Source: a candidate division WOR-3 bacterium (GTDB lineage: Bacteria > Hydrothermota > Tepidihabitantia > Tepidihabitantales > Tepidihabitantaceae). From it: a stretch of DNA of 64,000 nt. Position 1 is the first letter of the stretch; every line of letters starts with the position of its first letter. The DNA is taken from assembly GCA_965649295.1 (NCBI GenBank), contig CBFGKH010000003.1, forward strand, positions 64,001-128,000, in the 5' to 3' direction. This document shows, one piece after another, positions 3,115-35,824 of this stretch. The translations under genes were made by a program, and so were the position numbers. Below the pieces are notes generated by a model, which was not told the DNA's origin, did no database searches, and saw nothing but the letters and a program-made list of their open reading frames with translations.

Positions 3115-3178
3115 CTCGCCCGTCAAGGGCTCAGGTCACCAGCGCCAGCTCATCGAGCAAGAACTTGAGAAGCTGTAA
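3115..3178 (+). repeat. Degenerate duplicate of ABC gene 3' end (copy 2)
   Basis: Encodes QRQLIEQELEKL* versus QRQLIEQELEQL* in the gene. Confidence 0.85.
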
Positions 3179-3281
3179 CCCGTCAGCAAGCTGGTTGTGT
3201 TCGCACCGGAATAACCGCGCAACGCCATGAATGCACAGTATACCTCATCTATTTGGTATTGTGTCCCCGTATGGCCGGGGT

Positions 3282-4748
3282 CTACTGGGCATCAATCCTT
3301 AGACGCTCGACCCTTTTATTACGACAACGGCAGGCCCAGTTGGCACGCCCCTCGGCGAGGTCATGACGTTCCACCCAGCTGTGGCAGACGTTACACCAAA
3401 CACAATTAGCCAGGTTCAGTACAGCTTCGCCGAATTGCCGTGCCTCATGCATTGACAGGCCCATGGCCCACTCATTGTAGTGTGCTCCCGCAATGTTGCG
3501 CAGGTGTATCCAACGCTGCACGGCTTCCGCAAAATCTTTGGCCGTCGTCCTCGACAGAACCTTGTACACACCCGGCCAGAGGTCGCCCAGAGTGTATCGA
3601 TCACCCCTTCTACGTATGACCGATGTAGGCAAAGCCTGGCTCATCTCGTGACAGACCAATTCCACCAGCAGATTAGCTCGCGCGCAGATATCCGATACGC
3701 GTCCGCAATCCAGCGCTTCAGTGAGGGCCTGGTCGACATTACGGTCACTGCCTGCCAGGATTGGCCCATTGTGGTAACTCCAATGCGAGATGGTTAAGTC
3801 CAGAAAGCGGTGCGCACGCTGACGCATCAGTGCGCGCAACTGCTCCTGCCAGAGCCGGTCGTGTGCGGTGAACACAATCTGCCAATCATGGAAGCGATCA
3901 ACAATATGCTCCGCCAAACGCTGACGGACAGGAGCATCGACACTCTGTAGTGTATCATCGAGTACGAGCAGCTTGGACTGCCCTCTCCGGGAAGCTTCCT
4001 CCACGAAGGCAAGATACACAAGCAGTGCCAGCAGGTCCAAATTGGCCTCGCTGAAGATCTGCTGCGGCGGCACGACTCTGCCTCCCACAAGATGAACGTT
4101 GAAGGCGAGGGTCGTCGACGTAGGTCGCTGATAGAGGAGCTCTATGGCCACGACATGCTCTGAAGCGGCAGAAAGTTCTCGAAAAGAATCAGTGACAGCA
4201 GCGCCGAGAGAGTTGAGCACACTCTGGACTGCACATTGCTTCTCCACTGGACTCTTCGTTCCCGGTCTCAGGAAGCTGTCGAAAGCAATCTGCCTCTCGT
4301 GGTCTGGCGTTTCCCAGAACCTCGTGATGTCGCTCCGGCGAAGCACGAACGGCGAGATACAGAAGCTCCTGTGTGGGCTGGTATCTCGCCGCCATTTGCC
4401 TCTGGTGTCGGGGGTGGCGCCACGTGTGAAGGACGTGCCATCCGCGAAATCGACAGTCGTCGCACTTTCAGTCGCCGCAAACAACGAGTAGAGGGGTAGC
4501 CAACGACCGCGGACGTTACCACGCAGAGCGTACTCCAGCGCATCGACAATTGTCGACTTGCCCGTACCATTGTCGCCGCAAATGAGGAGAGAACTTGGTG
4601 TGCCACATTTGTCCCTGAAGTCGACCACCAGTTTGTTCGGTACCCCCCTGAAGCCGTCGATCACGAGTCTGACGATTCTGGTATCGCCGACCGGTTGACA
4701 AGGGACGTTTCCTAGTGTCGGTTCAGTCAACTCGTTACCTCGCGGCAT
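3282..4748 (-). CDS. SMC/RecF-type ABC ATPase with C-terminal HEPN-like RNase motif and Zn ribbon (RloC/PrrC-like defence candidate)
   Basis: Walker A GDNGTGKS, signature FSEAN, Walker B LVLDD, H-loop TAHD; RNIAGAH motif; terminal CxxC...CxC. Confidence 0.8.
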   Translation of the reverse strand: MPRGNELTEPTLGNVPCQPVGDTRIVRLVIDGFRGVPNKLVVDFRDKCGTPSSLLICGDNGTGKSTIVDALEYALRGNVRGRWLPLYSLFAATESATTVDFADGTSFTRGATPDTRGKWRRDTSPHRSFCISPFVLRRSDITRFWETPDHERQIAFDSFLRPGTKSPVEKQCAVQSVLNSLGAAVTDSFRELSAASEHVVAIELLYQRPTSTTLAFNVHLVGGRVVPPQQIFSEANLDLLALLVYLAFVEEASRRGQSKLLVLDDTLQSVDAPVRQRLAEHIVDRFHDWQIVFTAHDRLWQEQLRALMRQRAHRFLDLTISHWSYHNGPILAGSDRNVDQALTEALDCGRVSDICARANLLVELVCHEMSQALPTSVIRRRGDRYTLGDLWPGVYKVLSRTTAKDFAEAVQRWIHLRNIAGAHYNEWAMGLSMHEARQFGEAVLNLANCVWCNVCHSWVERHDLAEGRANWACRCRNKRVERLRIDAQ

Positions 4749-4754
4749 AGGCCG

Positions 4755-4782
4755 ATGGTAGCAGAGCGAGGTTATCTGTCAA
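4755..4782 (-). promoter_or_regulatory. sigma70-type promoter, leaderless
   Basis: TTGACA-16-TACCAT-6 nt-ATG(4748). Confidence 0.65.
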
Positions 4783-4820
4783 GGTCGTCAACGTGGACGA
4801 ACGCGGAGGCGAGATTCCCT

Positions 4821-4883
4821 CGACTACCATCGGTATGACAATACCCATCACGTCATTCCGAGGAGGCCTGGCGGCGAGGAATC
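4821..4883. repeat. REP-like palindromic family (GTCATTCCG...GAGGAATC and GATT/ACCCTCGACT...TGAC arms)
   Basis: Same arms recur at 35458-35824 and 61102-61177. Confidence 0.7.
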
Positions 4884-5096
4884 GCCGCAGCCGGCGGTAG
4901 TGGCCGCTCGCTAGCGTTAGAACGAAAGAAGGAATGTGGCTACGAGGATGAACACGAGAAACGGAAGCTCCTAGGAACGAGAGAACCACAGGTTGCACAG
5001 CCGAGGTCGCCGAATTGCGTCCTCAATGGGTTATACGCACTAAGACCGAATCTCGTGCAGGAATTGTAATCCGGGGCACGCTTCCCCAGACCGGTT

Positions 5097-5116
5097 TGTG
5101 TACTTGCAAGTACACA
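5097..5116. promoter_or_regulatory. Perfect 20-bp palindrome TGTGTACTTGCAAGTACACA
   Basis: Direct reading; related palindrome at 35202-35229. Confidence 0.8.
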
Positions 5117-5188
5117 GAGGAGCACGGACGAACTATCGCGTAACCGCAGAGAATGCCGTGAGTTATAGTCTATCAGCCGCTTCCCGAG

Positions 5189-5482
5189 ACCCCACCCCGG
5201 GGACTGTCCCGGGAGTGGTTCGGTAGAGTTGTGGCGAGACTGCTTAGAGAGATGCTGAGGACACCATCTGCCAATCGGCTGGAGGTTGCGTCTGGGCAGG
5301 TCTTGGCATATGGGCTTCGAGGAGAAGTATCGGACGTGCTCCCCAAGCCAAGTGCAGGACTCTTCTCGGCGCTGCTACTGGGAACGTCTGCAACCCGGTT
5401 ATGGACTAGGCCTGCGGCAGCACTCCTGCTGCCCTCTCCCAAGACCCTGCTGCCAGAGCCACTCATGATGTCTTGGCCAGGC
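5189..5482 (+). repeat. 12-nt-phased degenerate array A with 33-bp anchor (5189-5221)
   Basis: 24 consecutive 12-mers from 5195, 21 starting with two pyrimidines; anchor identical to the reverse complement of 35102-35134. Confidence 0.8.
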
Positions 5483-5622
5483 AGGTCGCAGTTCTGGTCT
5501 AGCTCAGACGACGCGCAGCCTGAGACCGGCATTGACCTCTGGCCGGTCAGTTTCTAGACTGGAATTAGTTGAACACCAAGGAGAACCGGGCGGAAAGATT
5601 GTTGCTCGCGGAAAAGGAGTGC

Positions 5623-6306
5623 ATGAAGATGAAGAAATCACTGTTGTTACTGATTGCGGCGCTGGTCCTGCCGGCTGCCGGAGTGAATATTGTGCTGAAC
5701 CCGTCGTTTGAGACCTGGCTATTGGGCGTGCCGGTTGGCTGGCTGACATCAGAGGCACTGTCGCCAGGCTCGGCAGTGCGAGACTCGAACAGCCACACCG
5801 GTTCCTGGTGTGTACGGCTGGAGGCAGTGGACACGAGCGCCTTTGTAACCTCGGCAACGCTCGTTCGGCCTGGACTGAGCTATGAGTTTGCCGGTTGGGT
5901 GCGATCACCCGGCGCGGTGGCCGGTTCTTTCATCCTCCAGTTCACCAAGCTCGATGCTTCGCCGATCGGTTCGCCGACCTTGATTCCAGCCTACTACTCC
6001 GGAACAAACTATCGTGAATATCGGCGCTGGGTAACAGCACCAGACTCAAGCGTCTTTCTCTCGATCACTTTTGCAACGCTGGCCGGACTCGTTGCCTATG
6101 TTGACGATGTGACGCTCGATGATACCAGTTTGACCGCGGTAGCCGAGAGAGCACCGGTTCGGACCGAGCGGGTTCGCGGTCTCGGCAAGTTTGTCTCCTG
6201 CGGCAGTCAGGTGCCGATGCCGGCGCAGCCGGTGTATGACGCGCTGGGCCGCCGGGTGAGTCAGGCCCGACCTGGCCGCGGTGTCTATTTTCTGCTGCCG
6301 AAATAG
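5623..6306 (+). CDS. Secreted protein, carbohydrate-binding-like (CBM4/9-like) domain with short C-terminal sorting domain
   Basis: AAGGAG RBS, signal peptide MKMKKSLLLL, NIVLNPSFE start and YVDDV end of the domain, C-terminal VYDALGRRV...GVYF. Confidence 0.75.
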   Translation: MKMKKSLLLLIAALVLPAAGVNIVLNPSFETWLLGVPVGWLTSEALSPGSAVRDSNSHTGSWCVRLEAVDTSAFVTSATLVRPGLSYEFAGWVRSPGAVAGSFILQFTKLDASPIGSPTLIPAYYSGTNYREYRRWVTAPDSSVFLSITFATLAGLVAYVDDVTLDDTSLTAVAERAPVRTERVRGLGKFVSCGSQVPMPAQPVYDALGRRVSQARPGRGVYFLLPK

Positions 6307-34816: not shown

Positions 34817-35134
34817 TTGGCTCTCCAGCTCACCAGCCAGAACCCGAGCAAGGCCTATTCGAGGGAGTGGCAGGAACAGACCGCCAGACCACTTGGGCAA
34901 GCCTGTGCCCAAGGCCAAGGCAGGCCCATCTCCAGACCGCAGGCCAAACAGCCCGAGCAAGAGCCGCCCATACACAATAGCAAACAGCCTTCCCAGCTCT
35001 GGTCAGAAGAGCTGCCCGGACATTCTGCCCAACCCCGCCACCAGCTTATCCATCAGTAGTCCGACCCGCACCTTACCAGACAGCCTCACCAAGGGTTCAG
35101 GGAACCACTCCCGGGACAGTCCCCGGGGTGGGGT
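34817..35134 (-). repeat. 12-nt-phased degenerate array B with 33-bp anchor (35102-35134)
   Basis: 26 consecutive 12-mers on the minus strand from 35128; all start with a pyrimidine, 24 with two. Confidence 0.8.
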
Positions 35135-35201
35135 ATACAGAAACGCACTACACACCTAACTGGCTGTCATGCAGAGACTTGCACCAAGAGCCGGGCGCAG
35201 G

Positions 35202-35229
35202 TCTCTGTGAACTTCAAAGTACACAGAGA
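35202..35229. promoter_or_regulatory. Imperfect palindrome TCTCTGTGAACTT-CA-AAGTACACAGAGA
   Basis: 12 of 13 arm pairs; homologous to 5097-5116. Confidence 0.75.
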
Positions 35230-35249: not shown

Positions 35250-35362
35250 AACTCGTATCCACCATTAGGCCCTTCTCCATTCAGGCTGAACAAATTCCGA
35301 CCGGCTGGCACCGGCACTCCAACGGAACTCGTATCCACCATTAGGCCCTTCTCCATTCAGGC
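35250..35362. repeat. Two identical 37-bp direct repeats separated by 39 bp
   Basis: AACTCGTATCCACCATTAGGCCCTTCTCCATTCAGGC at 35250-35286 and 35326-35362. Confidence 0.9.
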
Positions 35363-35457
35363 CCTGGCTCGGATTCTAACCAACCAAACCCTACAGACGA
35401 CATCCGTAAGGCAAGAAGCCACCATGACTGACAATTAGATGCAAACACCGTTTTCCC

Positions 35458-35824
35458 GTCATTCCGAACGAGCAGAGCGAGTGAGGAATCGCCGGACAAC
35501 GAACAACGAAGACCCTCGACTGCGCTCGGGGTGACGTGCGGGTTCTTCGCTCGGTTCAGGGTGACGTGATAGGGTCTTCTCTCCGCTCGGGATGGTATGA
35601 AATGCAAGGTAACACGAGAAGGCTTTGCCACGTTCGGTTGACTGGTGACCCGCCGGACACCCAGATTCGTCTCCTCCCTGTCATTCCGAGCGCAGGTCGC
35701 AAGGCCGGAGTCGAGGAATCGTCGGCAATAAGGGACAAAGACCCCTCGACTATGCTCGGGGTGACTTGATGGGTCTTCGCTCCGCTCGGCATGACATGAA
35801 GGCGGCTTTGTCACGCTCAGGGTG
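35458..35824. repeat. Cluster of REP-like palindromic elements
   Basis: Two GTCATTCCG...GAGGAATC...ACCCTCGACT..GCTCGGGGTGAC units plus extra right-arm copies. Confidence 0.8.

Follow-up and report, generated by a model that had tools for sequence, protein, structure and literature searches.

Array A raises the question of why a bacterial chromosome should carry 24 consecutive 12-bp units that are all distinct in sequence and held in one phase. It lies in the window, i.e. the whole 64,000-nt stretch of a candidate division WOR-3 genome that was analyzed here.

Array A is a phase-locked run of 12-bp units behind a conserved leader

From position 5195 onwards, 21 of the 24 units begin with two pyrimidines and 19 end in G or C; every count given in a preliminary reading of the sequence alone (the sequence-only reading) was reproduced. 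The phase lay beyond that of all 5000 base shuffles. In the best phase 20 of 23 pyrimidine pairs were obtained (shuffle maximum 15), and mean identity at lags 12-48 was 0.322, compared with 0.261 ± 0.013 in the 5000 base shuffles, none of which reached this value. Lag 12 taken alone was unremarkable (0.272), the signal being carried by lags 24 and 36 together with the pyrimidine pair. Array A was retained without indels in a relative that is ~93% identical (X2 record 9).

The 33 bp starting at 5189 recur without change at 35134-35102 on the minus strand, where they open array B, as the sequence-only reading had noticed. Between copies of this class (pal1, see below) 8.5-9.2 of 12 bases are held in common in units 0-1. 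Estimated from dimer values, the B-to-A cost was lowest in the anchor (0.44-0.46 versus 0.60), and the array body was not more A-philic than other DNA (0.595 versus 0.603). The anchor is a putative nucleation site. A hairpin proposed for it does fold, but no better than shuffled sequence (z -1.68; 11 of 200 shuffles folded equally well), and Rfam covariance models gave 0 matches at E<=1 in window 4700-5700. When the exact anchor pattern was sought in 60 relatives, 0 matches were obtained; the anchors are lineage-specific. Anchor-like G/C runs without a full array were seen upstream of two stand-alone capsid-fold genes (G000:C2:102760-102950 and C4:7900-8089).

The element consists of a leader of ~100 bp followed by the array. 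A 20-bp motif is located ~97-99 bp ahead of unit 1, followed at fixed distance by two short motifs and then by the C-rich anchor; motif positions are kept while the spacers drift. The sequence-only reading was correct in describing a real, polarized element without a name, but overlooked this leader. Three kinds of the 20-bp motif were distinguished, with 17, 19 and 8 copies in the genome, arrays A and B belonging to the first (pal1), while 22 of 66 copies have no recognizable palindrome or leader motif. The motifs are nearly exclusive to arrays, as 34/36 (pal1), 37/38 and 8/8 of their strand-matches in the genome lie at array leaders. The palindrome of array A is the predicted operator of the HTH-capsid-fold paralog encoded at G000:C9:8972-10111, which has the same pal1 motif in its own leader, at the gene start.

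The gene downstream of array A is a neighbor and lies outside the element; flanking genes vary from copy to copy. On the other side, an AAA/SMC-type ATPase with AbiEii-like matches is encoded at window 3282-4748 (minus strand). Relatives join 3178 to 4738 or have other DNA at 4895-4994; the DNA to the left of the leader thus varies and is possibly a defense slot. Just beyond the leader of array B a direct repeat of ~39 bp is found at window 35260-35360 (minus strand), and repeated inverted elements lie further upstream (35440-35800).

Table 1. Positions of the features discussed, numbered from the first nucleotide of the window
Feature	Position	Strand	Description
20-bp palindrome	5097..5116	+	class pal1 leader motif of array A
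Fixed-geometry leader motifs	5139..5168	+	TAAC-like and GTTA-like motifs ~17 bp apart; short inverted pair
119-codon open frame	5173..5532	-	chance, not a gene; stops 104 vs 108 ± 9 expected over 66 copies
Anchor of array A	5189..5221	+	C-run and first two conserved units; rich in G/C runs; 33 bp as in array B
Array A	5195..5482	+	24 phase-locked 12-bp units, non-coding
Downstream gene	5626..6306	+	226 aa, signal-peptide-like start, no Pfam match
Array B	34817..35225	-	second copy, same leader class; palindrome 35225-35206, anchor 35134-35102, 26 units

The genome carries a family of evenly spaced copies

With a relaxed anchor search 20 oriented copies were obtained, and their units were used to build a matrix with which the 2.28-Mb genome was scanned on both strands. 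This yielded 66 anchored segments with 17 or more units, four further anchored matches being dropped as short or coding; beyond the 66 there are three more copies, two strong ones in which the anchor is degenerate and a weak one. The copies vary little in length, 54 of 66 having 22-25 units, and are intergenic, only four of the 66 overlapping a gene call by more than 30 nt. In each of the three leader classes the phase score was level across units 2-21 and dropped sharply at units 22-24. The anchor phase is held in both halves of all 66 copies, a property that is partly built into their detection. Past unit 2 the copies have no position-specific identity (3.83 versus 3.82 of 12 bases in class pal1), and identity within arrays is constant with lag, without decay. 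Among 1188 units a pyrimidine occupies position 1 in 91% and position 2 in 88%, and T occupies position 12 in 2%; only this pyrimidine pair and the avoidance of T are strongly kept. The units show a polar pattern, the best dyad r being 0.21.

Neighboring copies in this genome are on average 28 kb apart, with a range of about 11-50 kb and a smallest gap of 11.3 kb. The coefficient of variation of the spacing was 0.38-0.40 compared with 0.88-0.89 for random intergenic placement, and 0 of 5000 draws were as even (a stricter null was also run). Gaps below 10 kb were not seen, whereas ~15 of 53 would be expected at random. The even spacing persists across mixed leader classes. On one contig (G000:C8) all four arrays are of the m3 class, accounting for four of its eight copies, and the m3 HTH gene is located on the same contig, hinting at local spread. 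Of 24 other genomes, 7 gave a period-12 signal at the junction of array B, one of them marginally; the score applied is passed by 52 of 66 true elements and by 7 of 150 random kilobases. Array sites therefore seem to be partly inherited and partly turned over.

Arrays have the same strand as the downstream gene in 40 of 66 copies and the opposite strand in 26, on which ground a promoter or UTR of that gene was rejected. In co-directional intergenic regions 13 copies run along and 18 against transcription. No link to replication direction was observed in a test that is weak on a draft genome, 35 of 66 copies following the local GC skew and 33 of 66 the local gene direction.

Arrays are non-coding and change by whole units

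Among 19 close pairs from other genomes, which are related and not independent, the net array indel was a multiple of 12 in all 19. These pairs contain 13 exact 12-nt indels, all at units 7-22 and none at units 0-6; the count leaves out more diverged pairs (identity below ~0.81; 12 of 31 tree edges), in which gaps have many lengths and alignments are unreliable. Three origins had been proposed in the sequence-only reading. Polarized growth by 12-nt additions at the anchor is not supported, given the near-fixed length, the flat phase score and the restriction of indels to units 7-22. A diversified minisatellite agrees with the near-perfect repeats at loci L022, L036 and L042 and with gain and loss of whole units, but not with the conservation of length, phase, leader and partner gene. 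A tetrapeptide-repeat protein on the minus strand fails because the frame is open in 11 of 66 copies, compared with 13.4 expected; the 119-codon frame exists in array A, but by chance. Coding was rejected in all six frames.

A CRISPR-like polarized array was also rejected, as there is no constant repeat and 13 of 13 exact whole-unit indels fall at units 7-22. With respect to insertion sequences and MITEs, there is no conserved neighbor gene, no common ends were visible by eye and the copies have no mutual identity. Nearly homogeneous 12-mer arrays of differing consensus, yet of roughly 20-28 units, were encountered in L022, L036, L042, L171, L172, G055 and G056, the last two having several near-identical array copies each.

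An XRE-type HTH gene is linked to the arrays

Four copies are arranged head-to-head with an HTH gene on the opposite strand, the start of which lies at the leader motif. The three named leader classes are represented by one such copy each, and the fourth copy has its own motif, the four paralogs of this genome each heading a different leader. The partner proteins combine an XRE HTH with a helical tail, and HTH_31 scored above cut-off in 4 of 4. As in XRE/Cro-type regulators, the HTH is N-terminal and a predicted palindromic operator lies at the protein's own gene start; in complete copies the gene start coincides with the palindrome.

Homologs of the partner protein, where named, are labeled candidate division WOR-3, and their loci were drawn from 44 family genomes and metagenome contigs. 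An array was present upstream of the homolog gene at 72 of 86 loci with at least 450 nt upstream, compared with 2 of 59 full-length stretches past the gene end (control counted by hand; duplicates and five loci of this genome included). Independently of the matrix, 68 of 70 distinct homolog loci, four of them from this genome, gave z>3 at period 12. The unit consensus at these loci is lineage-specific and ranges from near-perfect repeats to full divergence, and the phase ends at a median distance of 412 nt from the start of the gene (64 loci; 10th-90th percentile 336-441). At the gene start, 52 of 81 loci have a palindrome with at least 7 of 8 pairs, compared with 2 of 56 shuffles, and the recognition-helix sequence varies with the palindrome sequence in at least four groups. 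Shared ancestry is a confounder for both this covariation and the linkage of gene and array. Linkage is looser in the order's other three families, where 11 of 18 HTH-tail loci have the period.

The sequence-only reading had suggested a search for co-occurring integrase, reverse transcriptase (RT) or nuclease genes. At the homolog loci no enzyme gene is conserved beside the partner gene, be it a transposase, integrase, RT or nuclease, and flanking genes differ even between close homologs. A fifth HTH paralog (G000:C4:146690-147370) has no array alongside and carries only one capsid-fold tail, which is more distant. The usual place of the HTH gene, head-to-head with an array, is taken at G000:C6:184471-185038 (L216) by a divergent stand-alone capsid-fold gene that has no HTH; the leader of this array has no palindrome.

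Predicted folds and sequence profiles point to the Adnaviria capsid family

According to predicted models, the ~380-aa form of the partner protein consists of an HTH and two capsid folds, and the ~240-aa form of an HTH and one. A first fold search with the partner protein returned the HTH only, and Foldseek gave no match at E<=0.001. In the full model, residues 279-368 matched AFV1 ORF140 (Z 10.3, rmsd 2.0, 89 aligned) and the SSRV1 capsid protein (Z 9.8, rmsd 2.3, 85 aligned). For the middle domain folded alone (pLDDT 93.6), Adnaviria capsid chains occupied seven of the top eight rows of 48,161, the best match having Z 11.3 and rmsd 4.1 over 104 aligned residues with the long N-terminal helix included; for helical bundles, Z values of 8-11 are within the range that the tool warns can be chance. 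The models thus place a SIRV2-type alpha-helical fold in both tail domains. A duplication of the two domains is visible only by fold and by eye; profile alignment within the family did not detect it (E 0.23). Searches of the ESM Atlas returned no usable match, and weak unnamed matches, and a PHROGs search with the middle domain gave 1 of 51 members, in an unnamed family.

By sequence, a tail profile built from the other families ranked AFV1 ORF140 first (E 0.098). Within the order this profile finds a match in 65 of 66 genomes, compared with 0 of 206 in the rest of the phylum. It also finds stand-alone genes of ~124 aa, of which this genome has four typical and three divergent ones; they occur singly among cellular genes, and one is located 178 bp from an array. 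When the profile of the stand-alone family was compared with 177,635 PDB sequences, SSRV1 (E 0.001), SIRV2 (0.0013), SFV1 (0.0038) and AFV1 (0.013) came out on top, the SSRV1 and SIRV2 matches spanning ~108 of 122 positions. P0278 matched Pfam Sulf_coat_C with E 7e-5, below the curated cut-off, and gave only three matches among 50,697 phage records, all annotated as rudivirus major capsid proteins (E 0.5). Profiles of the stand-alone proteins and of the HTH tails align with each other (E 3e-13 and 7e-5). These comparisons argue for homology between the stand-alone proteins and solved Adnaviria capsid proteins, and by predicted fold and sequence partner and stand-alone proteins are assigned to the Adnaviria capsid family. 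A single-protein query of viral contigs, which has low sensitivity, found no relative, and as far as tested the system does not appear to be a virus.

Some loci of stand-alone genes deserve mention. Near rplT (G000:C5:142994-145162, L215), two or three divergent capsid-fold ORFs accompany a typical stand-alone gene and a gene whose start we read as sigma-factor-like; a similar sigma-like gene precedes the capsid-fold gene at C8:6467-7597. As a raw count, a period-12 stretch lies within ~3 kb in 15 of 36 stand-alone loci (L217-L242, L202-L211). A 3.8-kb contig of a MAG titled Cryobacterium (L220) holds a stand-alone capsid-fold gene and a period-12 track; this assignment is likely mis-binning, as an equally scoring contig sits in another bin (L221).

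Discussion

Several known systems resemble the element in part. Plasmid centromere iteron arrays (tubC-TubR, parC-ParR) have phased short units and are cooperatively bound by an autoregulated protein encoded next to them. Phased short units and an adjacent partner gene are found here too, and binding and autoregulation are presumed; in contrast, the units are not sequence iterons, no conserved partition NTPase adjoins and there are dozens of chromosomal copies. CRISPR/TIGR-type guide arrays and REP-RAYT are characterized by a conserved head followed by variable units and by a dispersed GC-rich palindromic anchor, respectively. Both traits recur in the present element, which differs in having no constant repeat, no growth at the anchor side and no nuclease or transposase neighbor.

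Phage phi29 p6 binds as one monomer per 12 bp, reads a bendability pattern indirectly and nucleates at a recognition region (PMC10899789). A 12-bp step, indirect readout and a nucleation region are proposed for the present element as well, but p6 is absent from the fold matches of the tail domains and acts at the two ends of the phage genome without an operator-binding HTH partner. The closest likeness is to Adnaviria nucleocapsids, for which PMC5517147 gives a capsid heterodimer repeat of 12 bp with overall polarity and 9.3 heterodimers per turn in AFV1, and 14.7 homodimers per turn in SIRV2. The 12 bp per AFV1 dimer equal the unit length here; the same fold is predicted in both tail domains, the stand-alone proteins show sequence homology, and the one- and two-domain forms mirror viral homo- and heterodimers. 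PMC12282232 names only archaeal hosts for Adnaviria and describes their capsid fold as restricted to these filamentous viruses, without occurrence in others, whereas the genes described here are bacterial and chromosomal, include a fusion to an XRE HTH and come with a dedicated, length-limited phased track in ~70 copies. A literature search on WOR-3 tandem repeats, HTH proteins or nucleoids and on bacterial Adnaviria capsids, with subscription journals and supplements outside its range, found no such system. The element is real and non-coding.

The observed anatomy, linkage, fold, homology and spacing are best read, with a probability of about 0.6, as operator-nucleated, length-limited coating of DNA by capsid-derived dimers, the binding being what we infer. 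The double-stranded track would host Adnaviria-type capsid-fold dimers, one per 12 bp, forming a short nucleoprotein coil of ~24 dimers. The HTH would bind the palindrome, which appears to overlap a sigma-70-like promoter of the HTH gene, and because of this overlap the protein may regulate its own expression. The fused capsid-fold tail would then seed assembly at the G/C-run anchor, stand-alone dimers, one for each unit, would extend along the track, and the pyrimidine pair that recurs every 12 bp could act as an indirect-readout mark that sets register and direction until the track ends after ~24 dimers. Copies without a gene, such as arrays A and B, would be served in trans. A likely job is positioned chromosome compaction or domain organization at ~28-kb intervals.

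The SIRV2-type capsid homodimer is two-fold symmetric. The polar pattern of the units suits a heterodimer with polarity or a fused pseudo-dimer, one of which must be assumed instead. From the AFV1 and SIRV2 dimers per turn we calculate that 24 units correspond to 1.6-2.6 turns. Viral capsid proteins coat entire genomes, and the sharp end at 24 units is therefore unaccounted for under the coating model. Also counting against it are the moderate Z values of the helical tail domains, the 22 of 66 copies without palindrome, the array body that is not A-philic, the fifth paralog without array and the linkage at only 11 of 18 loci elsewhere.

The main rival, which is not exclusive with coating and which we consider unlikely, is a selfish mobile element or virus relic in which the HTH-capsid gene and its track are autonomous and the gene-less tracks non-autonomous, with spacing arising from insertion immunity or packaging starts. 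It would explain why flanking genes differ between loci even of close homologs, why genomes have 1-27 family matches, why the four neighbors on C8, the site of the m3 gene, are all m3, and why the gaps of 11-50 kb overlap Adnaviria genome sizes of 17.6-41.5 kb (PMC12282232). However, no mobility gene is linked to the element, with no transposase, integrase or RT conserved beside the gene, and a shared terminal repeat was not seen by eye at either end. The lack of identity past unit 2 speaks against a recent burst, spacing is even across mixed classes, 7 of 24 other genomes have the period at the array B junction and the capsid-fold family occurs in 65 of 66 genomes of the order. Less probable still is an element acting as RNA, in which transcription from the leader would yield a single-stranded copy of the track that is read either as a pyrimidine ladder resembling Rho loading sites or as a scaffold for the capsid fold. 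The strand-specific pattern, with T exceeding A in 57 of 66 arrays, and the fixed, promoter-like leader spacing agree with it, but arrays run with (13) and against (18) transcription, only 28 of 66 are C-rich, RNA structure is not in excess (mean z -0.64 and -0.35; 30 of 66 arrays), Rfam gave no match, and exact phase over 280 nt would fit a rigid lattice better than flexible RNA.

Neutral decay of a minisatellite hitch-hiking with a regulator gene is largely refuted and very improbable. Near-perfect 12-mer repeats in some relatives, the lineage-specific unit consensus and the whole-unit indels would be expected from it, whereas arrays keep a length of close to 24 units whether they are homogeneous or fully diverged, anchor phase is kept in both halves of all copies (in part by the way they were detected), identity does not decay with lag and the spacing is even. 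Practically no weight is left for a hypervariable tetrapeptide-repeat protein family on the minus strand: the open frame of array A and the somewhat reduced number of stops at 52 related homolog loci (70 versus 88 ± 6.5 expected) are outweighed by interruption of the frame in 55 of the 66 copies of this genome and in 34 of 52 homolog arrays.

Returning to coating by capsid-derived dimers, a wider form of this reading, which we put somewhat below even odds, is that this WOR-3 order has domesticated an Adnaviria capsid protein as chromatin. Fusions would choose the starts, tracks would set register and direction, and stand-alone proteins would wrap the DNA as A-form coils, perhaps over the 11-50 kb intervals, for compaction, protection or packaging. 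The system would be a previously undescribed form of chromosome organization. A family assigned to the Adnaviria capsids is near-universal and multi-copy in a bacterial order and is tied to a positioned DNA signal with the period of a capsomer footprint. If the coating model is true, a virus coat has been turned into sequence-positioned chromatin, or a cellular source of the coat has been revealed; the tracks would represent a natural sequence code for capsid-type DNA wrapping, and the use of A-form DNA on a cellular chromosome would become testable.
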